A DNA stretch of 64,000 nt, taken from the NCBI GenBank assembly GCA_016193485.1, contig JACPRZ010000043.1, forward strand, positions 96,944-160,943, written 5' to 3'. Shown here piece after piece: positions 27,289 through 64,000 of this stretch. The position numbers and the translations under genes were made by a program. The stretch comes from Bacteroidota bacterium (GTDB lineage Bacteria; Bacteroidota; Bacteroidia; JACPRZ01). Each line of letters starts with the position of its first letter. Position 1 is the stretch's first letter. A model generated the notes under the pieces. The model searched no databases and was not told where the DNA came from. It saw nothing but the letters and a program-made list of their open reading frames with translations.

Positions 27289-27365
27289 TGTAAATTATCT
27301 CTTTAAAACATTGTAAAAATACCATTTATTCCTGTTTGGCGGTTGCGGGCGTAACTGCCGATGAT

Positions 27366-27446: not shown

Positions 27447-27565
27447 AAAGGATCAGAAGGGAACAAGAAAAGATATTTATTGGCATAGAGTTGGTAATTT
27501 TCGTTATGGAAAAAGAAAAGGGATAGTGGAGGATTACGATACAAAGAAAGATTAGGTAAATGGCT

Positions 27566-28282
27566 TTAGTTTGTTAACGTGTGAATCAACAATCTTGCTT
27601 CCGGAATTTCTTTATAGACATTATTAATATTATCTTCGGTTAAATATGTATTAATTGTTTTGAATAACTTACCACTTCTAAATGCTTCAGGAATGGATTC
27701 AGTATCATACACCTTTTTTTTTAATTGAGGGGTTGGGTGCAAATATCTAATATTCTCTTTTGAAATATCAAATATGCAGGATGCGACAAGTATTTCTGAA
27801 CTTGGGAATAATATTAGTGGAATGAAATATGGCAATATTTCGTAATTATAACCTTGTTTAACCATTTCTTCGTAGAATTTTTCAATTGAAAAATAAATTA
27901 ATCTATTAATACTATAAGCCCATTCAGTGAAGTAATTTGAGCGGTCTTTCAGAAGTTTTTCCGTATCAGAATTGATAATTATTATTTCTTTATTTGAAAT
28001 TGCAGAATTTACCCTTAAAGTTTTTTGGTAACAAGCATAATAAATAGCAATCAAATCTTTTAATAATTTATTGGAATCATCAGAAGTAAATGAGTAATTG
28101 GATGAATTTGAAGTGTTATGCAGATATCTTGATAAAGAATTAAAAATATTCAATTGATCCAGGTCAATAAAGCAATTATCGGGTAATTCCTCCTTCCGGT
28201 GTTTTTTAAAAATGGATTGTAAAAATTTTCGGATAACATAAAAGTCACTTAGCCCGTCACGAAGTATTGCAATATTTCGCAT
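27566..28282 (-). CDS. small partner protein of the upstream ATPase; possible RloB/TOPRIM-like effector (unassigned)
   Basis: Start 3 nt after the ATPase stop; N-terminus MRNIAILRDGLSDFYV (hydrophobic strand then D-G-x-S-D) resembles the start of RloB/DUF4276-type partners; later IIIINSDTEKLL acidic patch; AT-rich. Confidence 0.5.
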   Translation of the reverse strand: MRNIAILRDGLSDFYVIRKFLQSIFKKHRKEELPDNCFIDLDQLNIFNSLSRYLHNTSNSSNYSFTSDDSNKLLKDLIAIYYACYQKTLRVNSAISNKEIIIINSDTEKLLKDRSNYFTEWAYSINRLIYFSIEKFYEEMVKQGYNYEILPYFIPLILFPSSEILVASCIFDISKENIRYLHPTPQLKKKVYDTESIPEAFRSGKLFKTINTYLTEDNINNVYKEIPEARLLIHTLTN

Positions 28283-28285
28283 AAA

Positions 28286-36129: not shown

Positions 36130-36320
36130 TTTTACGAATTACGAATGTATGCGAATTTACGAATGGTACCTCTGAAAATTATCTTTGCCATTTAACTTTT
36201 TTACGCATTACCGGATGCATACGAATTTTATAGATGTAGAACGAAAATTTACCACATAAACGGCAATAAGGGATGACATTCGTAATTTCCTTAAAATTCG
36301 CAAATGGAATACGGTCATAT
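36130..36320 (-). promoter_or_regulatory. array of TACGAAT / ATTCGTA heptamer repeats immediately upstream of lpxA
   Basis: tttacgaattacgaatgtatgcgaatttacgaatgg directly 5' of the lpxA start, with further copies (gcatacgaat, cattcgtaat, attcgcaaat) up to the lpxC/fabZ stop. Confidence 0.35.
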
Positions 36321-37720: not shown

Positions 37721-37745
37721 AACAGGGGTGGTTTTCTGCCGAAGG

Positions 37746-37806
37746 GCACCTGCCTGCTCTGACGGAGTCCGATACTCGTCAGAGTCATCGGACCGGTAGG
37801 CAGGGA
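37746..37806. repeat. palindromic element (ctctgacg...cgtcagag; tcatcggaccggtaggcaggga), simple form of the 24071-24166 element
   Basis: Shares gtccgatact and tcatcggaccggNaggcaggga with 24080-24166 but lacks the inner gacatttatcgtc insert. Confidence 0.6.
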
Positions 37807-37880
37807 TTCGTCTTCTGGCGGATTGGGGGAGCAAAAATAGAAAATCCACGAAAATCAGGATATTTGCACGTTCTTACTAT

Positions 37881-50300: not shown

Positions 50301-51808
50301 CGGTTCCCGGTCCGAATGACTGGCCTGTTATCAGCAGCAGCGTGACCACCGACAGTTTAAAATTAGAACCAAACGGAAAACTGGAATTCATTGGAGGCGC
50401 ATTGAGCATCTGCGGTTCATTCGGACACTTTGGAATAATAACTATTTCAGGTGGTGTGCCGACAATCACTTTTAACGGTACGACAAAACAATTTTATATA
50501 AAAACATCTACCGGCACGGGTGATTTACCTAATGTTGTTATCAACAATGCAGCGGGAGTCAGAGTAGTGGATGGTGCAGGTAATAAGGATATGGATATTG
50601 GAACCGCATACATTTTAACTTTAACAAATGGGATTTTAACTTCCACAAACACCCGGACGGTAAATGTTAAAAACAGCGCTGTTGGCGCAGTTACCGGATT
50701 CGGAACATCTTCTTATGTTGCAGGTCGCCTACAAAGGGCTATTACGGGAGGATTTCCAAAATCTTATGATTTTCCTGTTGGGACTTCCAGCGGTTACGAG
50801 TTGATGAATATTAATTTTACGGCAGGCACCACCATTACAAGCGCAACCGTCTATTTTGAGAAACCATCAAACGCACTGGGCACGGGACTAAGTGCCCTAT
50901 CCGAAGGCGGTGCATCTTTTATTACTACCGTTCCCGGTATTGTCGATGCAGGGGGTGGCACAAACGGAGGATTATGGACGGTATTGGCAAGCGGAGGAGT
51001 TGCCAATTATGATATGACTTTGTATGGCAGAATATATTCTAATGCAGGCGGATTTACCCACACCATTGTAAAAAGGGACCCGTTTTGCCCAGGCAACTGG
51101 ACCCTGTCGGGAACTTATGGCGGCAGTTCGGTTGGCGGAGGAATCATTACCGTAACACGAACCGGAATGAACGGCTTTTCGCAGTTTGGCATTGGCAGGC
51201 ACGATGCGGTATTTCCTATATCCCTGTTATTCTTTAATGCCGTATGCACGAGCAGGGGAATTGAATTATCATGGATAACCGCCAGTGAAATCAATAACGA
51301 TTATTTTACAATTGAAAGAGCAGCCCCCTCCCAACTTCCCCCATCAGGGGAGGGGATGAATTGGACTGTTATCGGAACAGTTAAGGGAGCAGGCAATAGT
51401 TCTACGATTCGCAAATATGAATTTACCGATCCCCTCCCCGATAGGGAGGGTAATGGAGGGGCTTTCTATTATCGCCTTAAACAAACCGACTTTGACGGTA
51501 CCCATGAGTACTTTGATGCCGTACCTGCCGATTGCAATTCGGAAAATGAATTCAAGGTCATTAACATAATACCTAACCCGGCCAAAGACAATATTTACAT
51601 CCTCTTTAGTTCAGGGAAGAAACTCACCGATGTGACAATTGTATTATTTGACGTGCTGGGTAATTATGTGATTAAAGAAAAATTTTTACCTATTGAGGGC
51701 TTTAACAGCAGGGAGGTTGACTTAAGTTTCCTGAATAACGGGGTGTACGTAGTGAATGTAAATAACGGAACAACCAATTTTATTCAGAGAATAGTGAGAC
51801 AGGATTAA
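47324..51808 (+). CDS. giant secreted repeat protein (adhesin-like) with T9SS type A C-terminal sorting domain
   Basis: Signal peptide; about four N-terminal repeats with PPAND(N/V)C...DDDVW(Y/F)...TYY(I/V)RV; C-terminus KVINIIPNPAKDNIYILF...GVYVVNVNNGTTNFIQRIV is a T9SS tail. Confidence 0.8.
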   Translation: MRRYLLFCLSVLSTFLPRFVLAQADNCNTPATTLTVYPAVCTPYSGSTTGATPSSGPASTCGSTDDDVWFRYTTAAGSSYAFLYVDPASSGFDPAFQALSGACGSQAVQACVDAYAGGQGESVTLTGLSGSTTYYIRVFSYGSGSGTDGSFTACVFNGAPPANDVCGVATSVTLTQNATCSPTAGTTAWATTSAGIPACVGTADDDVWYKFTTGAGVTYERIVVDPTGSGGADLEFDPVVQVFSGTCGAFVSIACQNAVGAGGTEDFFVSGLTGSTTYYVRVYHYGSWYANRTDGGSFDICVMGGSPPANDNCAGALALPTNPGCVVFGGSSTTTFATQSSTGTPCSGYSIDDDVWYSFVAINYTHTLTVDPNSAMNVQIQVLSGACGSILSEQCQDNAGIDGTETMVVTGLTIGNTYYVRISHNGTFYGSNGSFTICNVASAPVGGDDLCNAVALPAVTSACTYGTYDNSSMPTGSGALPAGCSERANGFRRHMWFKFVVPTGGKVSINVKGLTGNITNPTVAAFSWNGGACGTLTNFTLLSCNNDFCNVNGDCNYHSVLNLSGLSVGATTYFKVSSASTDNGAGTFKICVSAPLNDGCPAPLFVCDLNGFEGTTSAGYTIDNGGLEGWSGGPYGTGGTTIENNSWLQFEASDVNASITITVSDCYLDDGGAGEYQYNCCGGPAGFNGGGLQAQILAMNGGNCSGSAGWTAMSVFLNGINGPNFGLNGTYTVTNTSALTVGQIYYIMFDGFAGDVCNYKINAATGVGTTVIVTPPSSTTNICSGSTATLAINPVGSGGTVNWSSSPSGYVCNNCGSSVVVDPAASPGVTDGTVTYYATVSGNCITPQTVSATVNVEPTPPTPTVVADPPGFCGVTSVSMTASAANATDYEWFDALVGGNSLDVGPVFTPAITDNQIGSYTVYVAAYNTSGSPTCTTVTRATKTVTINAWDGKIKWTGNAPAATPNWTNTLNWAGCTPGCADAVGVIIPDQTTVPGPNDWPVISSSVTTDSLKLEPNGKLEFIGGALSICGSFGHFGIITISGGVPTITFNGTTKQFYIKTSTGTGDLPNVVINNAAGVRVVDGAGNKDMDIGTAYILTLTNGILTSTNTRTVNVKNSAVGAVTGFGTSSYVAGRLQRAITGGFPKSYDFPVGTSSGYELMNINFTAGTTITSATVYFEKPSNALGTGLSALSEGGASFITTVPGIVDAGGGTNGGLWTVLASGGVANYDMTLYGRIYSNAGGFTHTIVKRDPFCPGNWTLSGTYGGSSVGGGIITVTRTGMNGFSQFGIGRHDAVFPISLLFFNAVCTSRGIELSWITASEINNDYFTIERAAPSQLPPSGEGMNWTVIGTVKGAGNSSTIRKYEFTDPLPDREGNGGAFYYRLKQTDFDGTHEYFDAVPADCNSENEFKVINIIPNPAKDNIYILFSSGKKLTDVTIVLFDVLGNYVIKEKFLPIEGFNSREVDLSFLNNGVYVVNVNNGTTNFIQRIVRQD
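51321..51465 (+). repeat. two GC-rich palindromic mini-insertions lying in-frame inside the adhesin gene
   Basis: ccccctcccaacttcccccatcaggggagggg (51321-51354) and cccctccccgatagggagggtaatggagggg (51429-51465) encode extra residues (APSQLPPSGEGM; PDREGNGGAF) absent from the paralogous module in 39696-41339. Confidence 0.5.
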
Positions 51809-52604
51809 ATGAAACGGATACCATACATAACTATCATTTTACTAACCGCAGCAGGGTTGTGCAGCAATTTCATCATGGCACAAACTTACCTAATTTCTCC
51901 GACTGGCGATGGGGGATTTGAAACCGGAACCACTTTTGCAGCCAACGGATGGACTGCTGTAAATGGTGGTTCAGATAATTGGCAGGTTGGTGGTGCGGCA
52001 GGCGTTCAGGGTGGGGCACGTGCATCTAAATTCCACAACATATACTGCTTCAGGTGCGGCTACTGTGGTGCATTATTACCGTGATATAGCCATTCCTGCA
52101 GGTGCAAATTATGTATATCTTAATTATTACCTGAAATATCCCACCATAGATAACACTTATGATTATTTCTATGTTTATAGAACTACTACAGGCAATACAC
52201 CTGTAGCCGGTACTGTCCCTGGAGCCGGATACACAAACTTGTTTACTAATACAGCCACAACCTATGCTGGTTATACAGCAATGCCACAAGTTGACCTCAC
52301 CGCACTGGCAGGCACAACAGTTCGTTTGGTTTTTACTTTTAAAAATGACGGAGCATCACCATATGCCGACCCTGCTGTTGATAATATCTCACTGACTTAT
52401 TGTAATCCTACTACTTCACTTTCCCCTACGGGTGATGGGGGATTTGAAACCGGAACCACTTTTGCAGCCAACGGATGGACTGCTGTAAATGGTGGTTCAG
52501 ATAATTGGCAGCGCTCCCACCGACCCTGCAAACGGAACTTCCTACACTGCCAATGCCGCTTATGGTTCAGGAACAGCCGTAGGAGGAGGATTTTGCGTGT
52601 ATAA
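51809..52604 (+). pseudogene. 5' part of a giant GEVED-domain adhesin gene disrupted by frameshifts (signal peptide plus MAM/choice-of-anchor-J-like domain)
   Basis: Three overlapping ORFs in different frames; peptide SPTGDGGFETGTTFAANGWTAVNGGSDNWQ encoded twice by a direct repeat (51908-51985 and 52434-52511). Confidence 0.5.
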
Positions 52605-55600
52605 TAGTACAGGCACTTCGGTTGCCATTACTGCATTAACTGCGGGTACTACCTATTATTACAATATCTACGAATATGCCACTGCCGGCACGTGTTATAA
52701 TCTTACCGAGTTAGCCGGCAATGCTGCCACATCAGCCCTTCCTTCAGCAGCAGGGGCAATTTCAGGAACTGCCACTGTTTGCCAGGGAGCAAGTGGTGTG
52801 GCTTATTCCGTAGGAGCAGTCGGGGGCGCCACAAGTTATGGATGGGCATACTCTGGCGCAGGGTACTCTTGTGCGTCTGGTTGTGCTACAAATTCCATCA
52901 CTGCTAATTTTTCCGGTGCTGCTACCTCCGGCAACCTCACCGTTTATGGAATCAATGCCTGCGGCAACGGAACAGCATCAGCCAATTATGCAATCACAGT
53001 AAATTCAATTCCCGGCACAGCCGGAATATCATCGCCTTCCAACGGAGCCACCAATCAATGCTCTGCAAACCCAATCACCTCTTTGAATTGGACTGCCGCA
53101 TCGGGTTCTCCAACGGGTTATAAACTTTATTTCGGAACAGATAATCCGCCAACAAATATTGTAAATGGCACAAATCTGGGAGCAGTATTAACCTATACGC
53201 CTGCCTCATTAAATTCCAACACACTTTATTATTGGAAAATTGTGCCTACCAATGCCTGCGGAGATGCCACAGGCGCTTCTGTTTGGAATTTCACTACCGG
53301 AACGCCATGTTATTGCGCTTCAAACGGTGGTACTTGGACCGATGAATGGCTTGCACGAGTACAAATGAATACAAGTCCGGCACTGGATAATAACAGCGGA
53401 GGACCTCCGGCATCCGGATACACTAATTTTACAGGACTGGGTCCGTACACAGTGAACCCCGGCAGCACTTATAATTTTACAGGAACTGTCGGGTCTTCAG
53501 GTTCATGGAGTGAATATATAAGGGTTTATATTGACTGGAACCAAGATGGCGACTTTATTGACGCGAATGAATCTTACGACATTGGCTCAAGAACAGGCGC
53601 AGGAACAATAGTCAATACAATACTGGTACCCGCAGGCGCAACAGTTGGCGCAACAAGAATGAGAGTTATAGAAAAATATAGCGGATATGCTACGTCATGC
53701 GAACTGTATAGCTATGGCGAAACCGAAGATTATACTATCACAGTTGCAACCGCCTGCACCCCCCCCACCACACAGGCATCCGCATACACTTCAAGTAACC
53801 TTGCCAACACCACTATGACTATTGGCTGGACAAGAGGCAATGGAAACAATATAATGGTAATAGCCCGTGCCGGCAGCGCACCCACCGACCCTACAAACGG
53901 AACATCCTATACTGCTAATGCCAATTATGGTTCCGGAACAGCCGTTGGAGGAGGGTTTTGTGTATATAATGGAACGGGAACTTCTGTAAACCTCACCGGA
54001 CTCACGGCAAATACAATGTACTATTTTGCCCTGTATGAATATAACACAGCAGGCACTTGTTATTATATGACTGAATTAACCGGCAGTACTCAAACAGCCA
54101 ATAACGGTAATGATGTAAATCATCCCGGAGATGGCGGTACTGCTACCTATTACCAATGCTCCGGTAATTATTACGACCCGGGAGGACCGGGGGCGGGAAA
54201 TTATGCCGATAATATTACTGTTTCAACAACTACTTTTTATCCCTCCACTTCCGGAAGCAAAGTATCGCTCTTCTTTACTGTTTTTGATACCGAAAATAAT
54301 TATGACGGACTGATGATATATGACGGACCAAATACCGGCTCACCCCTTATTTCATCAGGATTAGGTGTCGGAAGCAATGCCACCACTTGTCCTGCGGGCT
54401 CATGGCGCGGCACCGGGTCGCCAGGCACCGTAACTTCCACCCATGCCACAGGCGCTTTAACTCTTGTTTTTAGATCCGATGCTTCGGTTAATTCTACCGG
54501 ATGGGCGGCATCTATTTCCTGTATTTCCTCCTGCACCCCGCCCACCACCCAGGCAACCTCCTTTACCTCAAGTTCCATTGCTCAAACTACTATGACCGTT
54601 GGCTGGACAAGGGGCAATGGCAATAATGTAATGGTAATAGCCAAAGCAGGTAGCGCACCCACCGACCCTACAAGCGGTACTTCCTACGCAGCCAATGCCG
54701 CTTATGGTTCAGGAGCAGCAGTAGGCGGTGGATTTTGCGTGTATAACGGTACAGGCACTTCGGTAAATCTCACTGCGCTTAGTTGTCTCAATACCTATTA
54801 TTTTGCTATTTATGAATATGCCACGGCCGGTACTTGTTACAATTTAACAGAATTAACCGGTAGTGCAGCCACCGTTCCTCCCGGTAACCAAACTACTTAC
54901 GGAGCAGGTACATGGATAGGATATGTTTATACATGGTCCGGTTCTCCGGATTTTACACCTGGTAACTATAAGGGATATGTTACCCAGGCAACTACTTTTG
55001 ACAGGAACCCGGCAGATGTAGCGGCTGGAGGAAACATTTGTGGCGGTCCTTATACTGATAATTTCACGATTCGATTTAAAATGAATTATAATTTCCCTGC
55101 AAACAATTATGTTTTCACTATCGGTGGTGATGATGGAGTAAGGTTGAGCGTAGATGGAGGTAGCACATGGATTATTGATGGATGGTCAGACCATGGTTAT
55201 ACTACGTACTCAAATAATCCTTGTGTTATTTTGAATGGTTCTACCAATCTTGTTTTTGAATACTATGAAAATGGTGGAGGCGCCCGTGTTTCCTTTTCAT
55301 ACACAACTGTCGGGGGTAGTTGTTATTGCGCTGCTGATGGCGCTACCTGCGATGAATACATTGGTAATGTAACGGTTGGAAGCATCAATAACAGCACTGC
55401 CTGTACCACTACTCCACAGGGATATGGCGACTATACAGGACAATCTACCGCAATGAATATTGGAACAGGATATTCAATAACTGTTACAAATGGGAATGGT
55501 TATGCAGATGATCAATGCGGCATCTGGGTTGACTGGAACCAGGATGGTGATTTTGCAGATGCCGGTGAAACAATCAGTGTTACGGGTACTCCCGGCTATG

Positions 55601-56619
55601 GTCCCTATACCGCCACCATAACACCTCCCGGAACTGCAACAGCGGGTAATACAAGAATGAGGGTTAGAATCCACTATAATGATGAATCTTCTTCTTCCTG
55701 CGGTTCGGCTGTTTGGGGCGAAGTGGAGGATTATACCATTAATGTTCTTGGTTGCGTGGCTCCAACCACTTCTGCAACTTCCATTACTTTTCCAAGTGTA
55801 CAATGCACGCAAATGAATGTAAGTTGGACAAACGGAAACGGAGGCAGAAGAATAGTGGTTGCCAAAGCAGGAGCAGCGGTTGCCGGAAATCCGGTTGACG
55901 GTACTGATTATGCCGAAAATTCTTCCTTTGGCACGGGAGGTACAATTGCAGCAGGTGAATATGTTGTTTATGACGGCACCGGCTCAGGTTTTACGCTTAC
56001 CAATCTTGCAAGCGGTACAACTTATTATTTCAAAGTGTTTGAGTATAATTGCACAGGGGCAAATATAAAATACCGCACTACTTCTCCGCCCTCTGCCAGT
56101 CAGGCGACCAACTCCCTGCCTGGAACTCCAAGTGTAATTAGCGGTTTGCAAGGTGTTTGTATTTATCAAACCGGAGTTTCTTATTCGGTAACTATTGCCG
56201 GAGCAACGAGTTATACATGGTCGTATTCCGGAACCGGATTCACCAATACATCCGGCAATGTAAATCCTATTGCTGCCGATTTTTCCGCCACGGCCACTTC
56301 AGGCAATTTAACAGTATATGGTACCAGCGCTTGCGGCAACGGACCAACCTCCGCTGCATTGGCAATAACTGTAAATACCACCCCCCCCACCTCTGTTGAT
56401 GCAGGCGAAGACCAGTATATCTGTGCAAATCCCGTTACAATGGCTGCAACCGGCACAGGAACCTGGACTGTATTGAATGGAACCGGTACCATCACTACTC
56501 CGTCAAATCCGACAACTACGGTAACAGTTACCAATCCTTCTACCTCTGTTACTTTCCGGTGGGGAGCCACCAACGGCTGCGGCACATCCTACGATGAAGT
56601 GGTAATTAACAGGCAGTAA
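52489..56619 (+). CDS. giant secreted repeat protein with FN3-like repeats and GEVED domains (main body of the disrupted adhesin gene)
   Basis: Three repeats of GSAPTDP(T)NGTSYTANAxYGSGTAVGGGFCVYNGTGTSV; GEVED-type modules ending YGETEDYTITV and WGEVEDYTINV; ends abruptly (VVINRQ*) without a T9SS tail. Confidence 0.65.
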   Translation: MVVQIIGSAPTDPANGTSYTANAAYGSGTAVGGGFCVYNSTGTSVAITALTAGTTYYYNIYEYATAGTCYNLTELAGNAATSALPSAAGAISGTATVCQGASGVAYSVGAVGGATSYGWAYSGAGYSCASGCATNSITANFSGAATSGNLTVYGINACGNGTASANYAITVNSIPGTAGISSPSNGATNQCSANPITSLNWTAASGSPTGYKLYFGTDNPPTNIVNGTNLGAVLTYTPASLNSNTLYYWKIVPTNACGDATGASVWNFTTGTPCYCASNGGTWTDEWLARVQMNTSPALDNNSGGPPASGYTNFTGLGPYTVNPGSTYNFTGTVGSSGSWSEYIRVYIDWNQDGDFIDANESYDIGSRTGAGTIVNTILVPAGATVGATRMRVIEKYSGYATSCELYSYGETEDYTITVATACTPPTTQASAYTSSNLANTTMTIGWTRGNGNNIMVIARAGSAPTDPTNGTSYTANANYGSGTAVGGGFCVYNGTGTSVNLTGLTANTMYYFALYEYNTAGTCYYMTELTGSTQTANNGNDVNHPGDGGTATYYQCSGNYYDPGGPGAGNYADNITVSTTTFYPSTSGSKVSLFFTVFDTENNYDGLMIYDGPNTGSPLISSGLGVGSNATTCPAGSWRGTGSPGTVTSTHATGALTLVFRSDASVNSTGWAASISCISSCTPPTTQATSFTSSSIAQTTMTVGWTRGNGNNVMVIAKAGSAPTDPTSGTSYAANAAYGSGAAVGGGFCVYNGTGTSVNLTALSCLNTYYFAIYEYATAGTCYNLTELTGSAATVPPGNQTTYGAGTWIGYVYTWSGSPDFTPGNYKGYVTQATTFDRNPADVAAGGNICGGPYTDNFTIRFKMNYNFPANNYVFTIGGDDGVRLSVDGGSTWIIDGWSDHGYTTYSNNPCVILNGSTNLVFEYYENGGGARVSFSYTTVGGSCYCAADGATCDEYIGNVTVGSINNSTACTTTPQGYGDYTGQSTAMNIGTGYSITVTNGNGYADDQCGIWVDWNQDGDFADAGETISVTGTPGYGPYTATITPPGTATAGNTRMRVRIHYNDESSSSCGSAVWGEVEDYTINVLGCVAPTTSATSITFPSVQCTQMNVSWTNGNGGRRIVVAKAGAAVAGNPVDGTDYAENSSFGTGGTIAAGEYVVYDGTGSGFTLTNLASGTTYYFKVFEYNCTGANIKYRTTSPPSASQATNSLPGTPSVISGLQGVCIYQTGVSYSVTIAGATSYTWSYSGTGFTNTSGNVNPIAADFSATATSGNLTVYGTSACGNGPTSAALAITVNTTPPTSVDAGEDQYICANPVTMAATGTGTWTVLNGTGTITTPSNPTTTVTVTNPSTSVTFRWGATNGCGTSYDEVVINRQ

Positions 56620-56656: not shown

Positions 56657-57682
56657 TTGCAACCTTCCAATCCCAATATGGGCGCTTACATCAAAGCCAT
56701 AAGTTATTACCTGCCTGAAGAAGTTCTTACCAATGCTGATTTAGTGAGGATTTTTCCTCAATTAACTGAAGTTGAAATTTTCAGGGCGACAGGGATTAGG
56801 AAAAGGCATATCACTCCACACGGCATCATTGGTTCTGATCTGGCATATCTAAGCGCCATTAAATTTTTTGATGAACATCCAATAAAAAAAAAAGAGATTG
56901 ATTTTTTACTTTTTTGCACCCATGGATCAGATTATAATGGGCCCTCTTCCGCCTGCATTTTACAAGATAGAATCGGATTGCCGAACCATTGCGGTGCAAT
57001 GGACATTCCTTATGGTTGTACCGGCTTTGTTTATGGAACCGCCATAGCGAAATCATTAATAGAAAGTAACCTCGCAAAAAATGTTTTACTGCTTACCTCA
57101 GATATTCCCACAACGGTTATTCGTCCGGAAAATCATGAGTTAAGGGCAATTTTCGGTGATGGAGCTGCCTGTACCCTTTTTTCCATTTCAAAAAATAATT
57201 CCTCAATAGGTGATTTTGTTTTTGGAACAGATGGCAGGGGTGCGAAAAACCTCATAGTCAGAAATTCAGGAAGACGGGAACCGGTAACTATGGAATATCT
57301 TGAAAAAAATTCGGATGCCGGGGGAATGTTAAACGGAACAATGGAAATGAATGGTGCTGAAATATTTATCTTCGCGGTTAAAGTGGTTCCGACCATGGTA
57401 AAACAGGTGCTGGAAAAAAACAATCTGCAACAGGATGATATTGATTTATTCATATTTCACCAGGCAAGCGGATTTTTATTGGAAATCCTCAGGAAAAAAT
57501 TAAAAATTCCGAAAGAAAATTTTTTTGTTTATCTTGAAAATGTAGGGAATACCGTTTCGGCAACAATACCGATCGCCCTGAAGGAAGCGATTAAGGAAGG
57601 AAAAGCGAAAACGGGCGATAAAATCCTTCTTGCCGGTTTCGGAATCGGATATTCATGGGCAGGAACGGTAATACAATTGTAA
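56657..57682 (+). CDS. 3-oxoacyl-ACP synthase III (FabH-like, KAS III) family protein
   Basis: Active-site Cys context DIPYGCTGFVYG, His in LFIFHQASGF, Asn in LENVGNTVSATIP. Confidence 0.8.
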   Translation: MQPSNPNMGAYIKAISYYLPEEVLTNADLVRIFPQLTEVEIFRATGIRKRHITPHGIIGSDLAYLSAIKFFDEHPIKKKEIDFLLFCTHGSDYNGPSSACILQDRIGLPNHCGAMDIPYGCTGFVYGTAIAKSLIESNLAKNVLLLTSDIPTTVIRPENHELRAIFGDGAACTLFSISKNNSSIGDFVFGTDGRGAKNLIVRNSGRREPVTMEYLEKNSDAGGMLNGTMEMNGAEIFIFAVKVVPTMVKQVLEKNNLQQDDIDLFIFHQASGFLLEILRKKLKIPKENFFVYLENVGNTVSATIPIALKEAIKEGKAKTGDKILLAGFGIGYSWAGTVIQL

Positions 57683-57687
57683 TTCAG

Positions 57688-57945
57688 ATGTCGGACATCA
57701 ATGATTTTATTAAAAAAATTGAAGCGGAATTTGAAGAAATTTCCCCGGGTTCGCTTAACCCGGGAACTAATTTCCGTGAGATGAAGGATTGGAGTTCCAT
57801 GCACGCGCTTATCATCATCGCCCTCATTGATACTGAATATGGCATCTCGCTCAATGGTGAACATATGCGTTCTGTTTCCACCATAAAAGAATTATTTGAT
57901 TTAATCGGTAAAAAAAAAGTAACCCAGCAACATATTAATGACTGA
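57688..57945 (+). CDS. acyl carrier protein-like
   Basis: 85-aa acidic protein; helix II-like region MKDWSSMHALIIIALIDTEYGISL with candidate phosphopantetheine Ser; start taken at internal ATG 5 nt after the KAS III stop. Confidence 0.55.
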   Translation: MSDINDFIKKIEAEFEEISPGSLNPGTNFREMKDWSSMHALIIIALIDTEYGISLNGEHMRSVSTIKELFDLIGKKKVTQQHIND

Positions 57946-57960
57946 AAACTTGCCACTGAT

Positions 57961-57976
57961 CCCGATATCTATCGGG
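57961..57976. repeat. palindrome cccgatatctatcggg just after the ACP gene
   Basis: Identical to 46299-46314. Confidence 0.55.
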
Positions 57977-58203
57977 ACAGATTAAAAACAAAATAGATAT
58001 ATGTCTGAATTGTTATTCAAAGTGGAAACTCACAAAATAATGCGAACCCTAAATTATCTTGCTGCTTCCAAACTAAAAGTCGGATTAATCGTAAATTTCG
58101 GGAAAGATTTTTTAGAATGGAAAAGATTAGTATTATAAAAAATAATCCGTGCAATCAGTGGCTGCATTTTTTTTCTACTGAGTAGGCACAAAAAAAATCC
58201 TGA

Positions 58204-59265
58204 ATGGCGGTTTTTTCAATACCCGGTGCAAAAATTTCTGGAATATCCGCCTGTGTTCCTTCTGAAATCAGGTATACGAAAAATTACGACAGGATGAGCG
58301 AAAATGAAAAGAATCTCTTTATTAAAACGGTAGGAGTTGAAAGCCGAAGAGTAACCGGAAAGGGAATGACAACGCTTGATTTATGCGTAACAGCAGCCGA
58401 AAAACTTATTACTGAATTGGGATGGAACAGGAATGAAATTGAACTGTTGGTTTTTATCACTCAATCAAAAGATTATTACCTGCCCGGTAACGGCACCATT
58501 GCTCAGGATAAATTACGGCTAAGCAGGAATTGCATGGCATTTGATATTGGTCTTGGTTGTTCGGGATATATCTACGGGTTATCAGTGGCTGCAAGTATTT
58601 TGCGGGCTGCCGGAATTAAAAAAGCATTGCTGCTGGCAGGAGATATTTCCACCGTTAACACTTCGTACGAAGATAAAAGCGTATTTCCTTTATTTGGCGA
58701 TGCCGGCACTGCAACAGCCATTGAAAATAGTTCTGATTCCGGGAAATGGAGTTTTAATCTTTTCAGCGATGGTTCAGGGTTTGAATCCATCATGATCCCC
58801 GATGGCGGAATGAGAAACCGGATTTCGCAGGATTCATCGTTTGTTTACCGCACTTTTGAAAATGGAAATTCGCGGACTCCCTTGCATCTGGCGCTAAAAG
58901 GGATTGACATTTTTAATTTTTCCATCGGTGAAGTTCCCCGTTCTGTCAGAGAACTTTTGGCCTTTGAAAACAGAACTATCGGAGATTTTGATTATTTTAT
59001 CCTTCACCAGGCAAATAAACTGATGAATGAAACCATTCGTAAAAAACTCGGTATTGAAAAAAATAAAGTTCCGTATTCAATTCAAAAATTCGGAAATACA
59101 AGTTCTGCATCTATTCCTCTTACTGTAGTTACTGAACTGGGTCAGAAGGCAAGAGAAAATAATCTCTCGCTGTTTTTGAGCGGTTTTGGCGTTGGATTAT
59201 CATGGGGAAATGTATCGTTGAATACAAATCATATTGTTTGTCCTGAAATAATTAATGCCGGCTGA
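58204..59265 (+). CDS. 3-oxoacyl-ACP synthase III-like (KAS III family) protein, second copy
   Basis: Active-site Cys context FDIGLGCSGYIYG, His in FILHQANKL, Asn in QKFGNTSSASIP. Confidence 0.8.
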   Translation: MAVFSIPGAKISGISACVPSEIRYTKNYDRMSENEKNLFIKTVGVESRRVTGKGMTTLDLCVTAAEKLITELGWNRNEIELLVFITQSKDYYLPGNGTIAQDKLRLSRNCMAFDIGLGCSGYIYGLSVAASILRAAGIKKALLLAGDISTVNTSYEDKSVFPLFGDAGTATAIENSSDSGKWSFNLFSDGSGFESIMIPDGGMRNRISQDSSFVYRTFENGNSRTPLHLALKGIDIFNFSIGEVPRSVRELLAFENRTIGDFDYFILHQANKLMNETIRKKLGIEKNKVPYSIQKFGNTSSASIPLTVVTELGQKARENNLSLFLSGFGVGLSWGNVSLNTNHIVCPEIINAG

Positions 59266-60005
59266 TGATTGATTTAACCGGAAAAAATATTTTGATAACC
59301 GGTGCATCGTCCGGTATTGGAAGGGAAACGGCTATTCTGGCCGGTAACCTTGGTGCCGTGGTAACGGTGACGGGGAGAAATAAGAACCGCCTGGATGAGA
59401 CATTTCAGCGGCTTAAAGGGAAAAATAACCTGCAGTTTGTTGCCGATTTATCGGAAGAAAAAAATATCGTTGAACTTACCGGGCATCTTCCGGAATTTGA
59501 CGGGATTGTTCATTGTGCCGGAATAACCAGTCCGATGCCGGTAAAATTCATCAGGGAAAAGCATTTGCAGGAAGTTTTTAAAATAAATTATTTCGCGTCT
59601 GTTTTACTGACCGGATCTCTTTTGAGCAAAGGGAAAATCAAAAATGCTTCTTCCATTATCTTTGTATCATCCGTATCCACTCAACTGCCTTATTTCGGGG
59701 GAACAGCATACATTGCTTCAAAAGCGGCAACCGAATCCTATTGTAAGACATTGGCTTTTGAATTGGCCCCGCAAAAAATAAGGGTGAATTGCATTTCACC
59801 GGGATTGGTAAGGACCGCAGTATATGAAGAGATGAGAACCGGTTACGGAGACGAAAAAATGGAGGAATACGAAAAAAAATACCCGCTCGGGTTTGGCAAA
59901 CCGGCTGATGTTGCCAATGCCGTTGTTTTTTTACTTTCGGATGCTTCCGGTTGGATTACCGGCACCATAATCAATCTTGACGGAGGATTATTACTTGGCA
60001 GATGA
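59265..60005 (+). CDS. SDR-family oxidoreductase (ketoreductase-like)
   Basis: Rossmann motif ILITGASSGIGRE; catalytic YIASKAA (YxxxK); 1-nt overlap with the upstream gene. Confidence 0.85.
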   Translation: MIDLTGKNILITGASSGIGRETAILAGNLGAVVTVTGRNKNRLDETFQRLKGKNNLQFVADLSEEKNIVELTGHLPEFDGIVHCAGITSPMPVKFIREKHLQEVFKINYFASVLLTGSLLSKGKIKNASSIIFVSSVSTQLPYFGGTAYIASKAATESYCKTLAFELAPQKIRVNCISPGLVRTAVYEEMRTGYGDEKMEEYEKKYPLGFGKPADVANAVVFLLSDASGWITGTIINLDGGLLLGR

Positions 60006-60922
60006 AACCCGCAGCGTATTCCATTATCATTCCCGTTTATAATGGCGGAAAATTTTTGCCTGAACTTTTCCATCGGTTACTGACCATATGCAAAAATTAT
60101 GAAAAAACCGAAATAATTTTTGTGGATGACGGAAGTTATGATGACAGTTGGAAGGTAATTGAGAAAATCAAGGAAGAAAACAGCGATTTGGTTACCGGAA
60201 TAAAACTCTCCAGAAATTTCGGACAGCATAACGCCACTATGTGCGGGTTTTACCATTGCACCGGTGATTTTATTATTACCATTGATGATGACCTTGAGAT
60301 GCTGCCGGAAGATATTCCTCTTCTCATTGAAAAGCAAAAAGAGAATAATGCCGATCTGACTTATGGCATCAATGATAATTTTTCACACATTTCGCTTCGC
60401 GGGCTGCTTACCGCCACCTACAAACGTGCATCCTTACTGGAGGGGAGGTACAGGGGGAAAGGATCAGGTTTCCGGCTTTTAAAAAAATCTCTTGTTGAAA
60501 ACATTAAGAACAATACGGGGAATTTTGTTTTTATTGATGAATTTTGCATGTGGTACACTTCCAATATTGATTATGTAAATGTTCAATCTTCTTTTTCAGG
60601 AAAAAAGAAAAGTTCGGGTTACACCCTGGCTAAATTATCCGCGCTTACAAGAAAATTAATTGTCATATCCACTGTTATTCCCCTGAGAGTAATTACTAAT
60701 CTCGGCTTGATTGTGGCTGTAATAAATTTATTGCTGGGAATGAGAATTATCATTAAAAAACTCTTTTTCAACGTTCCCCTCGGGTACACTTCTATTATTG
60801 TGGGCATCTTATTTTCCACCGGGTTAATTATGTTCAGCATCGGTATTTTGGGAGAATACCTTGGCATTGTCGTTCGCTCCGTTACAAAAATGCCGCCATT
60901 CAATATTGATAAAAAAATATGA
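60002..60922 (+). CDS. GT2-family polyprenyl-phosphate glycosyltransferase (GtrB/ArnC/DPM1-like)
   Basis: YSIIIPVYNGG...IIFVDDGSYDDS...ITIDDDLE (GT-A DxD fold) with two C-terminal TM helices. Confidence 0.8.
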   Translation: MKPAAYSIIIPVYNGGKFLPELFHRLLTICKNYEKTEIIFVDDGSYDDSWKVIEKIKEENSDLVTGIKLSRNFGQHNATMCGFYHCTGDFIITIDDDLEMLPEDIPLLIEKQKENNADLTYGINDNFSHISLRGLLTATYKRASLLEGRYRGKGSGFRLLKKSLVENIKNNTGNFVFIDEFCMWYTSNIDYVNVQSSFSGKKKSSGYTLAKLSALTRKLIVISTVIPLRVITNLGLIVAVINLLLGMRIIIKKLFFNVPLGYTSIIVGILFSTGLIMFSIGILGEYLGIVVRSVTKMPPFNIDKKI

Positions 60923-61527
60923 AACTGGAACAGTACGGAATAACCCTTTCAAGAATTACATCCGATGATATTGAATTGGTGAGAAACATGAGAAATGCAC
61001 CGCACGTCAGAAGCACAATGGCTTACCGGAGGTATATTACGAAATCAATGCAAAAAAAGTGGTTTGAACGTGTAAATAATCCGCTGAATTATTATTTGCT
61101 CATCTCGTATCGGAATGAAAAAATCGGAGTTATCAACATTAAAAATATCCGCTTGGATGAAAAATGGGGCGAAGGAGGTATTTTTATTCATGAAAAAAAT
61201 TACTGGAACACTCCTGTTCCGGTGTTGGCTTCACTGTGCCTGCTGAATTTTATTTTTTTTCAGTTAAAAATAACCGATAAATCATTCATAAAAATTTTAA
61301 AAGATAATTTGCCTTCCATCCGTTACAATAAAATACTTGGCTATGTTTTGGTCCCTTATCAGGAAAAAAAGAAGAATCAGCTCTATGTGCTCACTAAAGA
61401 TGCGTACATTGAAAAAACCGAAAAACTCCGTAAAGCCGCAACCATCTTTTCTGGTGATACTGAATTACCGAGATTAACCGGGGTAAAAAGTCCGTTGAAT
61501 CTTGAACAAATGAACATCATGCTTTAA
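60919..61527 (+). CDS. GNAT-like N-acetyltransferase (PseH-like), tentative
   Basis: LSRITSDDIELVRNMRNAPHVRSTM...WFERVNNPLNYYLLISYRNEKIGVINIKNI resembles the PseH/sugar N-acetyltransferase pattern; 4-nt overlap with the GT2 gene. Confidence 0.45.
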   Translation: MKLEQYGITLSRITSDDIELVRNMRNAPHVRSTMAYRRYITKSMQKKWFERVNNPLNYYLLISYRNEKIGVINIKNIRLDEKWGEGGIFIHEKNYWNTPVPVLASLCLLNFIFFQLKITDKSFIKILKDNLPSIRYNKILGYVLVPYQEKKKNQLYVLTKDAYIEKTEKLRKAATIFSGDTELPRLTGVKSPLNLEQMNIML

Positions 61528-61576
61528 AAATATCCTGACGTTCTACCCCTGGGGTATTTATTCACAAGTATAAATA

Positions 61577-62809
61577 TTACTTAAGCACATCTGCCAAACA
61601 CACAGGAATAAGTTTATTATCTTTTATTGTTACGTCAGGACAATTTAAACAATATTCAATTTCGCCATCATAAGTAACATTTGGCCCTTGCTGAAAGATC
61701 ATCGTTTTAAAATTCAGTGTAGAACCTGGTTTTAACAAGTTGGACAGAAATAATATTGTCTTCATTATTGTTAAAGGATTTAAACTGAACAATGCATACA
61801 ACAAACACTTGTAAAATATTTTTTTCTTGTTCCAGATAATATCAAAAGGATACTTTCCCGTTTTTTTTATATGCAACTGATTTCCAACTTTTGCAATATG
61901 TTTAAAATCAATATTCGTATGCAATAGTTTTGTTTTGCAATTTTTTAATTGGATAACAAATGTTAAATAAAATATCCATCTTTTCTCGGATATATTTTTA
62001 GTTGATGGGATATAACCATATGGTAATAAATTAAACTGATGATTTAAATATGCAATAACTTCTTCATTCAAAACAACTTCATTGTCTAAAATTGTAGGTA
62101 CAAGCCGGTTAGGCAGGATTGAGGATTTCGGGATATTGTTTGCAATTAATTCAAAATCCGTACAGCAGGTAACCAATAATGATTGATGCATTTTATTGTT
62201 AAAGAAGCAAGAAATAAATTCGCTAAAATTCGCCAAATCGCTTTTATACAAAGTTATTTCAAGTGCACACCGTATTCCGTTTTTAATAATCTTGTTTGAT
62301 ATATTTGTGCGTAATTCTATCAGATCCTTTCTGTCGAAATTTTCTTTCAAATCCGGTCTTTTTTGGTGCTCATCAATATGAAGAAAAATCTTATTTATTT
62401 TTGATTTTTTATACTCGGCAAGCTTTTTATCAGTTAATGCAAAACCGTTACTTAATACATCAACCAAAATCCCTTTATTTGAAATATATTTAATGACTTC
62501 TGATAATTCCGGGTGTAAAGTGGGTTCTCCGCCAGCAAGTGTTATCAAATGTAAATTTCTCTTTGTTATAATAAAATCAATTTCATTTTTGATGATTTCC
62601 AGAGGTTTTGTATAGTCAGATTGGTCTTTGTAACATGCTTTACAGGAGATATTGCATTTTTGATTTACTTCAATTACGGCATGAGGAATATTTTTCCCGC
62701 TAAATGGCATTTTATAGAGTTTATTTACTGCCACTGTATTTTTAATCTTAGGATTCATAATTATACAATAATAAAACAAACTTATTAATAACTTTATGAC
62801 ATAGGTCAT
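61577..62809 (-). CDS. radical SAM protein with Cys-rich C-terminal (SPASM/twitch-like) region
   Basis: CNISCKACY (CxxxCxxC) followed by a GGEP-type motif (LAGGEPTLHP); C-terminal cysteines (VTCC, EYCLNCPD...PVC); AT-rich. Confidence 0.7.
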   Translation of the reverse strand: MTYVIKLLISLFYYCIIMNPKIKNTVAVNKLYKMPFSGKNIPHAVIEVNQKCNISCKACYKDQSDYTKPLEIIKNEIDFIITKRNLHLITLAGGEPTLHPELSEVIKYISNKGILVDVLSNGFALTDKKLAEYKKSKINKIFLHIDEHQKRPDLKENFDRKDLIELRTNISNKIIKNGIRCALEITLYKSDLANFSEFISCFFNNKMHQSLLVTCCTDFELIANNIPKSSILPNRLVPTILDNEVVLNEEVIAYLNHQFNLLPYGYIPSTKNISEKRWIFYLTFVIQLKNCKTKLLHTNIDFKHIAKVGNQLHIKKTGKYPFDIIWNKKKIFYKCLLYALFSLNPLTIMKTILFLSNLLKPGSTLNFKTMIFQQGPNVTYDGEIEYCLNCPDVTIKDNKLIPVCLADVLK

Positions 62810-62893: not shown

Positions 62894-63343
62894 ATGGACG
62901 ACAATACTTTTAATACTGGAATTTACTTAGCTGAGAAAAGCTTTCAGAATATTTATAAAAAGCATAATTATTTTATGGAAAAGTATTTTAACCATTCCAT
63001 ACCAAAAAAAGGATTATCCACAGGGTTCATTCCATATAATATTGATTTTTCTAAATTAGCGCAACGGAATATTATTTTGACCGGGGATGCCGCTGGCCTT
63101 TGCGATAAAATGTTTGGTCATGGAGTTGATAATGCCATAATATCCGGATATCTTGCCATTGAAAGTATTTGTAATGCTGAAAATACAAATAACACATACC
63201 CGCTTAATGAAATTTACCGTTATAAATTAGGAAAGTATCTTAATAAATCACTTTCTTACGCTATAAAAACCTACGAAACTTTAAAGGAAAATAAAGTAAA
63301 TTATTTGGATTCATTGGAAGCGCTTATAAAACCAGGTGTCTAA
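62894..63343 (+). CDS. truncated FAD-dependent oxidoreductase (geranylgeranyl reductase/halogenase-like C-terminal fragment)
   Basis: IILTGDAAGLCDKMFGHGVDNAIISGYLA is the second FAD-binding motif of this family, but the N-terminal Rossmann part is missing (only 149 aa). Confidence 0.4.
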   Translation: MDDNTFNTGIYLAEKSFQNIYKKHNYFMEKYFNHSIPKKGLSTGFIPYNIDFSKLAQRNIILTGDAAGLCDKMFGHGVDNAIISGYLAIESICNAENTNNTYPLNEIYRYKLGKYLNKSLSYAIKTYETLKENKVNYLDSLEALIKPGV

Positions 63344-63354
63344 TTTGTTCTACT

Positions 63355-64000
63355 ATGAAATTTGCAGATCAATTTGATACAATTTTTTATTCTTCAAAAG
63401 TTAATGAAAATGTCAGGTTGATATTAAACGAGGGTTCTGCCCATGACTTATTTATCAACTATTTTGGAGTTAATTATAATGAAACAGACATTGTTTCGGT
63501 TAAGTTATATTTTTCTTTTTTTGAAAGACCATCCGAAAATATTTTAAGTGAATTTGGCATAAATGAAAAGCACAGAGGGCTTATCTTTACTAACTGGATG
63601 CCTTCAAAAAGGTATGATTTTATCCACCAGGGATTAACCCTTGGGTTAAAATGTTACCTTAAAAATAATGAGATAATAATTAATAAATACATCCATTTTA
63701 GAACAACAGAATTTGCATTAGGGTTTCCGGATGAAATAAAATTACTAAAGGAAGATAGAAACTGCCCCGGCATTTGCCTTGAATTTCATGAGGAGGTAAC
63801 CGAAGTAAAAAAATACTATTATATTACCTCTGCTGAAAATAAATCAAAAATCATTAAAAATTTTGGAATAGAAGCAATTGTTAAACATAACGATATAAGC
63901 ATGATAGAATACACAGAAAGCGAATTAGGGAGAAAAATAAACCTGGCGGTTAACAGGGCGGATACTGTTAAAACTATTTTAATGAAAGAAAATAATAAAT
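63355..64000 (+). CDS. hypothetical protein, 3' end beyond window
   Basis: Open frame from ATG at 63355 to the window end (215 codons, no stop); AT-rich; no motif recognised. Confidence 0.4.
   Translation, partial: MKFADQFDTIFYSSKVNENVRLILNEGSAHDLFINYFGVNYNETDIVSVKLYFSFFERPSENILSEFGINEKHRGLIFTNWMPSKRYDFIHQGLTLGLKCYLKNNEIIINKYIHFRTTEFALGFPDEIKLLKEDRNCPGICLEFHEEVTEVKKYYYITSAENKSKIIKNFGIEAIVKHNDISMIEYTESELGRKINLAVNRADTVKTILMKENNK

Follow-up and report, generated by a model that had tools for sequence, protein, structure and literature searches.

The locus considered here raises the question of what a compact operon for two ketosynthases, a carrier protein, a reductase, a membrane glycosyltransferase, and an acyltransferase makes, and where its product is used. 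The operon lies in a 64,000-nucleotide stretch of a Bacteroidota genome (assembly GCA_016193485.1, contig JACPRZ010000043.1), which is referred to at its full length as the window. It comprises six intact, co-directional open reading frames (ORFs) on the plus strand at 56678–61527, which encode a β-ketoacyl-acyl carrier protein synthase III (KAS III-1), a small protein resembling an acyl carrier protein (ACP), a second synthase (KAS III-2), a short-chain dehydrogenase/reductase (SDR), a family 2 glycosyltransferase (GT2), and a member of the Gcn5-related N-acetyltransferase (GNAT) family. Judged from sequence and from analogy with characterised systems, the balance of evidence tips modestly toward an operon whose product, an N-(hydroxyacyl) amino sugar linked to a lipid carrier, would be used beyond the cytoplasmic membrane. 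All of the components have known relatives, and an analog of the acyl module has been predicted in a published study. A fixed operon joining a miniature fatty-acid-synthesis (FAS)-like module to a GNAT and an ArnC-like GT2 was not found described in the literature searched.

Conservation and organization of the operon

One genome per species was scanned with an alignment of the GNAT, which recovered at least 441 relatives. From these, 80 loci were kept, all from Bacteroidota except for one contig filed under Saccharibacteria. Gene order was counted by ORF and BLAST analysis at the 61 loci with enough upstream DNA to be informative. The full six-gene set occurs in the same order at 41 of these 61 loci, with 40–56% amino-acid identity, and because the same six genes recur in this way, their arrangement is far beyond chance. 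At one locus (L026), all six genes are present in a shuffled order. The operon is observed in Flavobacteriales, Chitinophagales, and Sphingobacteriales with a patchy distribution that covers only some Bacteroidota, and it is kept in at least several hundred species. Cultured carriers include Parvicella tangerina, Wandonia haliotis, Aequorivita sp. H23M31, and Mesonia aquimarina.

A first-pass annotation of this DNA, made from the sequence alone, had described six co-directional genes of the families named above, and both the ORFs and a family match for each are borne out (Table 1). Its description of the genes as tightly packed or overlapping fits four of the five junctions, namely a 5-nt gap between KAS III-1 and the ACP gene, a 1-nt overlap between KAS III-2 and the SDR gene, and two 4-nt overlaps thereafter. 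It does not fit the junction between the ACP and KAS III-2 genes, which is a 258-bp gap (57946–58203).

Table 1. Genes of the operon and the feature at its 3′ end, in window coordinates
Feature	Coordinates	Strand	Supporting match
KAS III-1, FabH-like ketoacyl-ACP synthase, 334 aa	56678..57682	+	ACP_syn_III_C, ACP_syn_III matches
Divergent dedicated acyl carrier protein, 85 aa	57688..57945	+	weak PP-binding, invariant Ser37
KAS III-2, 353 aa	58204..59265	+	ACP_syn_III_C 7e-22
Classical SDR, probable NADPH-dependent 3-ketoacyl-ACP reductase, 246 aa	59265..60005	+	adh_short_C2 7e-45
ArnC/GtrB/DPMS-type polyprenyl-phosphate GT2, 306 aa, two C-terminal transmembrane segments	60002..60922	+	Glycos_transf_2 2.4e-31
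PseH/FdhC-like GNAT N-acyltransferase, 202 aa	60919..61527	+	Acetyltransf_3 2e-10
Terminator-like hairpin, 17 nt past the GNAT stop	61544..61556	+	consensus scan

Two of the start sites were chosen by reading the DNA. For KAS III-1, the ATG at 56678 is likelier than the TTG at 56657 with which the mechanical ORF begins, and for the ACP, the ATG at 57688 is likelier than a start at 57655, so that the ACP gene follows the KAS III-1 stop after a short gap rather than overlapping it. Within the 258-bp gap, a 45-codon C-terminal remnant of a PDDEXK_3/GxxExxY gene is observed (58001–58138, plus strand; PF13366, E = 1.1e-4, profile positions 83–116 of 117). Because the ACP and KAS III-2 genes abut without a gap at orthologous loci, this interval looks like an insertion scar within the operon. 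The hairpin downstream of the GNAT gene is the probable end of the operon, with such sites in the region no more frequent than expected from shuffled sequence. The next gene 3′ of the hairpin lies on the opposite strand.

The predicted acyl-chain module

Both KAS III proteins match their Pfam families well above the cut-offs (for KAS III-1, ACP_syn_III_C at 1.4e-31 and ACP_syn_III at 8.9e-17), and they are 30% identical to one another. The catalytic triads read by the first-pass annotation, Cys114/His261/Asn291 in KAS III-1 and Cys119/His268/Asn298 in KAS III-2, are invariant in 49 and 55 orthologs, respectively. KAS III-1 passes the NF006829 model “beta-ketoacyl-ACP synthase 3” (263.8 bits against a cut-off of 249), and KAS III-2 falls below every curated FabH cut-off. 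Neither protein reaches the 292.1-bit cut-off of the TIGR00747 fabH equivalog, at 242.8 bits for KAS III-1 and 191.3 bits for KAS III-2, in keeping with the earlier description of the set as specialised rather than housekeeping. The best matches in the PDB are two uncharacterised Burkholderia proteins, 3GWA for KAS III-1 (286 bits, compared with 151 bits for Escherichia coli FabH) and 4EFI for KAS III-2 (220 bits, compared with 125 bits for E. coli FabH). Homologs of KAS III-2 with 37–44% identity are found in Parabacteroides capsule loci, beside ACP, SDR, AMP-ligase, and acetyltransferase genes, and in Azospirillum brasilense Sp7, where they adjoin pseI and flagellin genes.

The small second gene probably encodes an acyl carrier protein, as had been proposed. 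The scores of the single sequence are low, with PF00550 PP-binding at E = 0.0075 (16.9 bits, cut-off 20.8) and the NCBIfam ACP model at E = 0.0055, also below its cut-off. The assignment is drawn instead from three features of the orthologs, which are ~77–81 aa long. A profile built from 23 of them matches almost exclusively ACPs in the PDB, each match being weak (best 2LML, 3.3e-4); Ser37, in a WSSM motif at the position of DSL in AcpP, is invariant in 50 orthologs; and without exception the gene is flanked by the two KAS III genes.

The SDR, described in the first-pass annotation as a ketoreductase, matches the KR domain (1.1e-7) as well as adh_short_C2. It matches FabG models at 1e-38 to 1e-42 (131–145 bits), below their cut-offs of 222–333 bits. 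The TGxxxGxG motif, Arg38, and the Asn108-Ser136-Tyr149-Lys153 tetrad are conserved in 59 orthologs; Ser136 is replaced by Thr in two of these, and the remaining residues are invariant. The invariant Arg38 suggests NADPH as the cofactor.

Together, KAS III-1, the ACP, KAS III-2, and the SDR would constitute a minimal type II FAS-like module without a dehydratase or an enoyl reductase. Gene content, conserved catalytic residues, operon-like packing, gene order, neighbourhoods, and fold assignments are direct observations; we infer the chemistry of this module, and of the steps that would follow it, from sequence and analogy. One KAS III would condense a short acyl-CoA with malonyl-ACP, the malonyl group being loaded by the housekeeping FabD, and the SDR would reduce the resulting 3-keto group. 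The second KAS III could then add a further C2 unit, which would be reduced again. Because a pair of condensing enzymes with a single ketoreductase, and neither a dehydratase nor an enoyl reductase, suits 3-hydroxy or 3,5-dihydroxy short chains, the product of the module is predicted to be 3-hydroxybutyryl-ACP or a 3,5-dihydroxyhexanoyl-type ACP.

The closest published analog of such a module is found in the O-polysaccharide locus of Flavobacterium psychrophilum, likewise a member of Bacteroidota. In this locus, four adjacent genes encode a KAS III (wfpC, 333 aa), an ACP (wfpD, 76 aa), a different KAS III (wfpE, 350 aa, 33% identical to WfpC), and a ketoreductase (wfpF, 242 aa) (PMC6519341). 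The wfpC-F genes are predicted, rather than shown, to make a 3,5-dihydroxyhexanoyl group that is amide-linked to Qui2NAc4N in the O-antigen, and the PglD-like WfpG is predicted to move the acyl group from the ACP (Cisar et al. 2019, PMC6519341). The order KAS III, ACP, KAS III, ketoreductase plus an N-acyltransferase matches that in the window, as known from the published table rather than from an alignment, and the four proteins are of similar size (333/76/350/242 aa and 334/85/353/246 aa), as is the divergence within each KAS III pair (33% and 30% identity). By this analogy, the module in the window may be the counterpart of wfpC-F, and the settings of the more distant KAS III-2 homologs, in capsule loci and beside pseI and flagellin genes, lean in the same direction. 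The two systems differ in the acyltransferase, which is a PglD-like left-handed β-helix protein in the wfp system and a GNAT in the window. They also differ in their setting: the wfp genes share a Wzy-type O-antigen locus with the amino-sugar genes pglE/pglF and a gene for a PglC-type initiating transferase, whereas the window operon has an ArnC-like GT2 and no amino-sugar genes, and none of wzx, wzy, pglE, or pglF is found near it.

The glycosyltransferase and the acyltransferase

The GT2 had been described as a polyprenyl-phosphate transferase with C-terminal transmembrane helices, and the comparison with ArnC upholds this description. ArnC is the best NCBIfam match (3.6e-41, residues 6–304), at 141.2 bits against the 529-bit equivalog cut-off of NF007986. 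In the PDB, ArnC is again the best match and aligns over the full length (9HWJ, 127 bits, residues 6–302), followed by GtrB sll0501 (103 bits). The D95-D-D-L-E segment of the GT2 aligns to D100-A-D-L-Q of ArnC, and all 76 orthologs share its DDD, a DXD motif. R133 corresponds to R137 of ArnC, which binds phosphate, and is Arg or Lys across orthologs. Two hydrophobic segments, 219–256 and 258–294, align in sequence to the transmembrane helices of ArnC. At the position of ArnC S141, Thr, Ser, or Lys is observed, and the R205 region aligns poorly.

In the Arn pathway, N-acylation precedes transfer to undecaprenyl phosphate and the charged sugar passes to a GT-C glycosyltransferase, and the same order, with a presumed GT-C user, is proposed for the cassette. 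ArnC itself charges undecaprenyl phosphate with an N-formylated amino sugar, N-formyl-Ara4N. The systems differ in the N-acyl group, which is a formyl group in the Arn pathway and, in our proposal, a hydroxyacyl group from a dedicated ACP. The GT-C enzyme of the Arn pathway is ArnT, whereas the related loci described below carry a TMTC/PMT-like protein with tetratricopeptide (TPR) repeats, which is absent from the window. No arnA, arnB, arnD, arnT, arnE, or arnF gene is found in the window or in related loci.

The GNAT belongs to a RimJ/RimL-type family (Acetyltransf_3) and has a C-terminal extension of ~45 aa. As the first-pass annotation had suggested, it is PseH-like. PseH is its only NCBIfam match (1e-12; 48.4 bits, below the cut-off of 93.1), the ortholog profile finds FdhC of Acinetobacter nosocomialis as its best PDB match (5KTA, 4.3e-12), and an AlphaFold2 model with a predicted local distance difference test score of 96 has PseH as its top Foldseek match (4RI1, 2.8e-12; template-modelling scores 0.69 and 0.77), with FdhC also among the matches. 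Both are nucleotide-sugar N-acyltransferases: FdhC, a dTDP-sugar N-3-hydroxybutanoyltransferase, uses 3-hydroxybutanoyl-CoA as its donor, and PseH uses acetyl-CoA. The products bound in the FdhC entry 5KTC are CoA and a 3-hydroxybutanoylamino sugar. FdhC and PseH are thus the best profile and best fold matches, yet they share only ~20% identity with the GNAT and lack its extra C-terminal region, and their donor is an acyl-CoA where that of the GNAT is presumably an acyl-ACP. The likeness is supportive rather than decisive evidence for the role of the GNAT. Clustered at 50% identity, the members of the GNAT family with E ≤ 1e-30 fall into 491 clusters; a comparison with plasmids returned only distant PseH genes (~27% identity). 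A sphingolipid-type role for the GNAT, SDR, and ACP was considered and dropped, there being no serine palmitoyltransferase-like gene.

The GT2 and GNAT genes, which overlap in the window, are the minimal conserved pair at 12 loci. In addition, natural single-chain GT2-GNAT fusions, P0418 (414 aa) and P0478 (425 aa), are present in a representative protein library. In both fusions, the GT2 catalytic domain is joined to the GNAT and the GT2 transmembrane hairpin is missing. The pairing and the fusions tie the GNAT to sugar chemistry. The GNAT would move the acyl group from the module onto the free amine of a nucleotide-activated amino sugar, similar to FdhC and PseH, and the membrane GT2 would then load the N-acylated sugar from the nucleotide onto undecaprenyl phosphate, similar to ArnC. 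A product of this kind, short hydroxyacyl groups on lipid-linked amino sugars, had been raised in the first-pass annotation, and it gains support by analogy from the order and sizes of wfpC-F, the FdhC/PseH likeness of the GNAT, and the ArnC likeness of the GT2.

Conserved neighbours at related loci

All ORFs from ~90 related loci were clustered, and recurrent families of at least 70 aa were taken as neighbours. The cassette is part of a larger conserved locus, beyond what had been seen from the window, that includes hydroxylases, sulfotransferases, a GT-C/TPR protein, and a giant protein of the type IX secretion system (T9SS). No report of an association between such an operon and TMTC-like GT-C proteins, hydroxylases, sulfotransferases, and giant T9SS proteins was found in the literature searched.

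The most frequent neighbours are Asp_Arg_Hydrox hydroxylases (family f2), of which two to four are present per locus and which occur within the next three genes past the GNAT at 47 of 58 loci; Cupin_8 hydroxylases replace them at some loci. The best curated model for f2 is OlsC, an ornithine-lipid acyl 2-hydroxylase (1.2e-30), and the f2 profile matches human AspH at 1.9e-38. Sulfotransferases (family f7) are observed at 46 of the 58 loci, also with two to four copies each. Their profile has the CurM sulfotransferase, which sulfates a β-hydroxyacyl-ACP, as its best match (2.5e-27), followed by the tyrosylprotein sulfotransferases TPST1/2 (~1e-24). The likeness to the CurM/OLS sulfotransferases and to the OlsC/LpxO hydroxylases concerns the f7 and f2 profiles of related loci and not the window. 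Unlike the CurM and OLS systems, the related loci have no thioesterase for sulfate elimination and carry the enzymes in multiple copies, and TPST and AspH are almost as good matches as CurM and OlsC. In Mesonia, the cassette and three hydroxylases stand alone between housekeeping genes with no adhesin nearby, an arrangement that points to hydroxylases acting on the product of the cassette itself.

A membrane protein of 630–860 aa with C-terminal TPR repeats (family f6) is found at 34 of the 49 loci with both flanks. Matches to TMTC_DUF1736 and PMT_2 are observed for its membrane domain, which retains the TMTC motifs M1, M2, M4, and M7 (DD, YRP, K, and ER), which define donor and metal binding in TMTC proteins. 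The donors of GT-C enzymes are polyprenyl-phosphate sugars, and a GT-C user fits the locus because the GT2 should make such a sugar. A similar pairing of a polyprenyl-phosphate GT2 with a GT-C protein is known from three-component glycosylation of the Gtr/CsbB-YfhO type and from eukaryotic TMTC/PMT protein O-mannosylation, the resemblance being confined to the related loci. The window lacks the GT-C protein, no GtrA-like flippase is found at related loci, and the sugars of the Gtr and TMTC systems are plain glucose, GlcNAc, or mannose, whereas an N-acylated and perhaps also sulfated sugar is expected for the cassette.

Giant proteins with a type-B T9SS C-terminal domain, detected with a hidden Markov model of such domains, are encoded at 30 of 81 loci, and at 18 of the 45 loci that bear f6, the giant gene adjoins f6 and is co-directional with it. 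The two closest relatives of the window cassette, with GNATs 67–68% identical, combine the cassette with, in this order, a sulfotransferase, two f6 genes, a small secreted protein, and a giant PKD_6/Ig_7/CHU_C protein. In related genomes, the lipid-linked sugar would be flipped and then used by the TMTC/PMT-like GT-C protein with its TPR domain, with the neighbouring giant, type IX-secreted, adhesin-like protein as the most likely acceptor. The linked 2-oxoglutarate hydroxylases and 3′-phosphoadenosine-5′-phosphosulfate-dependent sulfotransferases would probably hydroxylate and sulfate the acyl group. Extended to the phylum, this would be a Bacteroidota-wide system of periplasmic glycosylation in which the cassette is the donor arm and a TMTC/PMT-like GT-C enzyme decorates giant adhesins of the Ig-like-repeat kind with an amino sugar bearing a hydroxylated, O-sulfated short acyl chain. 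We put this extension forward tentatively, as possible rather than probable; decoration may in that case take place before or during type IX secretion.

Other neighbours are less widespread. MBOAT plus SGNH-like genes and DltA/DltC/DltB-like genes occur at 21 of the 49 loci with both flanks, a halogenase together with an adenylating enzyme, a carrier protein, and an acyl-CoA dehydrogenase at 13 of the 49, and a NodU-like carbamoyltransferase and CDP-sugar genes at some loci. At ~17 loci (L027, L032, L036, L037, L039, L043, L045, L049, L051, L056, L065, L076, and L079 among them), an adenylating enzyme of 484 aa is encoded along with a small carrier protein, and most of these loci add a DltB-like membrane protein of 843 aa, a flavin-dependent halogenase with the WxWxIP motif, and an acyl-CoA dehydrogenase. 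This set resembles the logic of proline-to-halopyrrole conversion as well as that of D-alanylation; a reading of the accessory genes along either line was set aside, the halogenase set being confined to 13 of the 49 loci. At ~14 other loci, an MBOAT and a 312-aa protein take the place of the adenylating set. At four loci with only the GT2-GNAT pair (L044, L047, L048, and L055), the divergent upstream genes encode an extracytoplasmic function (ECF) sigma factor of 162 aa and a protein of 576 aa that matches no Pfam family, which hints at regulation of an envelope-stress type.

Alternative acceptors and products

Several observations weigh against the synthesis of a lipid-linked N-(hydroxyacyl) amino sugar by the operon. 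Every curated equivalog cut-off is missed (FabH, FabG, ArnC, and PseH), and the scores of the presumed ACP are weak. The position of ArnC R128 is not conserved in GT2 orthologs, being Tyr, Pro, Phe, or Asn, and the GNAT matches SpeG polyamine acetyltransferases and RimL with scores just a little below those for FdhC and PseH. Orthology with wfpC-F is drawn from gene architecture, and the wfp function is itself a prediction. The 12 loci with the minimal pair have hydroxylases and sulfotransferases but no KAS III, ACP, or SDR genes, so that the acyl module is dispensable for the system. A tblastn search of the 64 kb with related-locus proteins found no hydroxylase, sulfotransferase, GT-C/TPR, or type-B C-terminal domain gene. 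No flippase is present in the 64 kb or among the recurrent ORF families of at least 70 aa at related loci, no wider search having been made. Finally, genes that would form an amino sugar, such as those for an aminotransferase or a dehydratase, are not conserved with the cassette (DegT is present at only two loci), and the acceptor amine of the GNAT might therefore not be that of a sugar.

The same chemistry could serve a polysaccharide or lipid A, as a side-branch modification of O-antigen, capsule, or lipid A of the Gtr or Arn type. ArnC and GtrB, the nearest solved relatives of the GT2, serve lipopolysaccharide modification, the wfp analog lies within an O-antigen locus, and the MBOAT plus SGNH-like and Dlt-like genes are of a polymer-modification type; the carbamoyltransferase and CDP-sugar genes at some loci also count in favour. 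Set against these are the frequent pairing of cassette loci with a giant secreted-protein gene and the lack of a recurrent Wzx, Wzy, WaaL, or initiating phosphoglycosyltransferase at related loci. We consider a polysaccharide or lipid A acceptor unlikely, while allowing it some weight.

Another reading is direct modification of a protein or peptide by the cassette and its neighbours. The acyl chain carried by the ACP would be moved by the GNAT onto an amine of a peptide or protein, as in lipidated ribosomally synthesized and post-translationally modified peptides, while the AspH-like or Cupin_8 enzymes would hydroxylate Asp or Asn and the TPST-like enzymes would sulfate adhesin tyrosines. The RimJ/RimL-type family of the GNAT, with RimL among its fold matches, is consistent with such a role, as are the AspH and TPST1/2 matches, the substitution by Cupin_8 enzymes, and the linkage of giant adhesin genes. 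Representatives of f2 and f7 lack a signal peptide, however, so that any action on a giant Sec substrate would have to be cytoplasmic, and no conserved small precursor gene was seen, although no systematic search for small ORFs was made. In addition, the GT2 partner and the GT2-GNAT fusions connect the GNAT with sugars, f2 scores OlsC above any NCBIfam model of a protein hydroxylase, the best match of f7 is an acyl-ACP sulfotransferase, and the Mesonia hydroxylases accompany the cassette with no adhesin near. Direct modification of this kind appears improbable.

A free lipid or pigment, of a dialkylresorcinol/flexirubin, aryl-polyene, N-acyl-amine, or glycolipid type, with the GT2 glycosylating the lipid instead of charging a carrier, appears very improbable. 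In its favour, a pair of KAS III enzymes together with an ACP and a ketoreductase is also known from resorcinol, pyrone, and quinolone pathways, the StlD/DarB models give weak partial matches, lipids are the substrates of OlsC-like hydroxylases, and the halogenase and its associated genes occur at 13 of the 49 loci. Against a DarB cut-off of 550 bits, however, the two KAS III proteins score 53.7 and 15.9 bits, over partial stretches only. On these scores and the absence of DarA, the flexirubin or dialkylresorcinol origin suggested in the first-pass annotation is rejected. Genes for DarA, a dehydratase, an enoyl reductase, or a KAS I/II are neither part of the window cassette nor recurrent among the ~90 loci, and aromatase, thioesterase, lipid exporter, and LolA-like genes are likewise not recurrent. 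Furthermore, the alignment of the GT2 with polyprenyl-phosphate transferases spans its whole length, membrane hairpin included, and the common neighbour f6 is a GT-C protein that needs a polyprenyl-phosphate sugar as its donor.

A duplicated or alternative housekeeping set for fatty-acid initiation (FabH, AcpP, and FabG) with unrelated neighbours is effectively refuted, for although KAS III-1 passes NF006829, both KAS III proteins fail TIGR00747, the SDR stays below the cut-off of each FabG equivalog, the ACP bears little likeness to AcpP (WSSM rather than DSL, E ~0.005), no FabD, FabF, FabZ, or FabI gene is adjacent and no fatty-acid synthesis operon flanks the cassette here or at related loci, and the acyl set is always coupled to GT2-GNAT with a patchy distribution in some Bacteroidota only. 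The FabH scores and the flanking genes bear on the two findings that the first-pass annotation had named as refuting its reading, and both speak for that reading.

Surroundings of the operon in the window

The cassette in the window is intact, and its downstream neighbourhood looks rearranged. Convergent with the GNAT gene, a radical SAM protein of 393 aa as called is encoded at 61577–62758 (minus strand), with weak similarity to TrsS, tungsten-cofactor maturase, and viperin models. Its gene has no cassette-adjacent counterpart in the ~90 related loci except for a 26% match in L068. It is followed at 62894–63343 (plus strand) by the C-terminal 149 aa of a flavoprotein of the geranylgeranyl-reductase family, normally ~355 aa, and at 63355–64000 (plus strand) by an ORF of family f21, which has no Pfam match and runs off the window. 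In the Vicingus locus L008, an f21 gene and then a full-length reductase (11431–12498) lie directly past the GNAT gene, in the opposite order to that in the window, and hydroxylases, a sulfotransferase, and f6 lie beyond them. The GC content at the downstream end of the window is 0.30–0.35. The radical SAM gene and the reductase fragment were considered as members of the system and set aside, the former having no such counterpart beside the cassette elsewhere.

Upstream of the operon, a 1494-aa T9SS cargo protein with a type A C-terminal domain, Ig_7, and a galactose-binding-like domain is encoded at 47324–51808 (plus strand). Three overlapping plus-strand ORFs follow, at 51809–52084 (with a signal peptide), 51963–52604, and 52489–56619, with GEVED and PKD_6 domains. 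They look like one giant gene for a T9SS-type secreted protein (51809–56619) broken by two frameshifts or assembly errors, and this gene ends 58 nt upstream of KAS III-1.

Further from the operon, a low-GC island (0.34–0.35) at 24225–29581 (minus strand) encodes an Eco57I/MmeI-type N6-methylase fusion (746 aa) and an AAA_21/AAA_15 ATPase (431 aa) and is probably a restriction or defence island. An EPSP-synthase-fold gene at 33187–34497 (plus strand) and an LpxC-FabZ fusion gene at 36320–37849 (minus strand) are ordinary chromosomal context. The fusion gene is part of a lipid A cluster; its FabZ is the only domain of a fatty-acid-synthesis type in the window beyond the operon itself and lies 19 kb from the cassette.

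Implications

The cultured carriers named above make the model testable. If it holds, the operon would provide a biochemical test bed for the 3,5-dihydroxyhexanoyl sugar route predicted for the O-antigens of a fish pathogen, and the associated loci would offer the first experimental handle on bacterial TMTC-like transferases. Should the tentative extension to periplasmic glycosylation of giant adhesins be true, the system would parallel, in bacteria, the O-mannosylation of animal cadherins, but with a sugar that is lipid-like and strongly anionic. For environmental Bacteroidota, the model would add a new surface decoration, a sulfated or hydroxylated acyl-sugar, to gliding or adhesion proteins.

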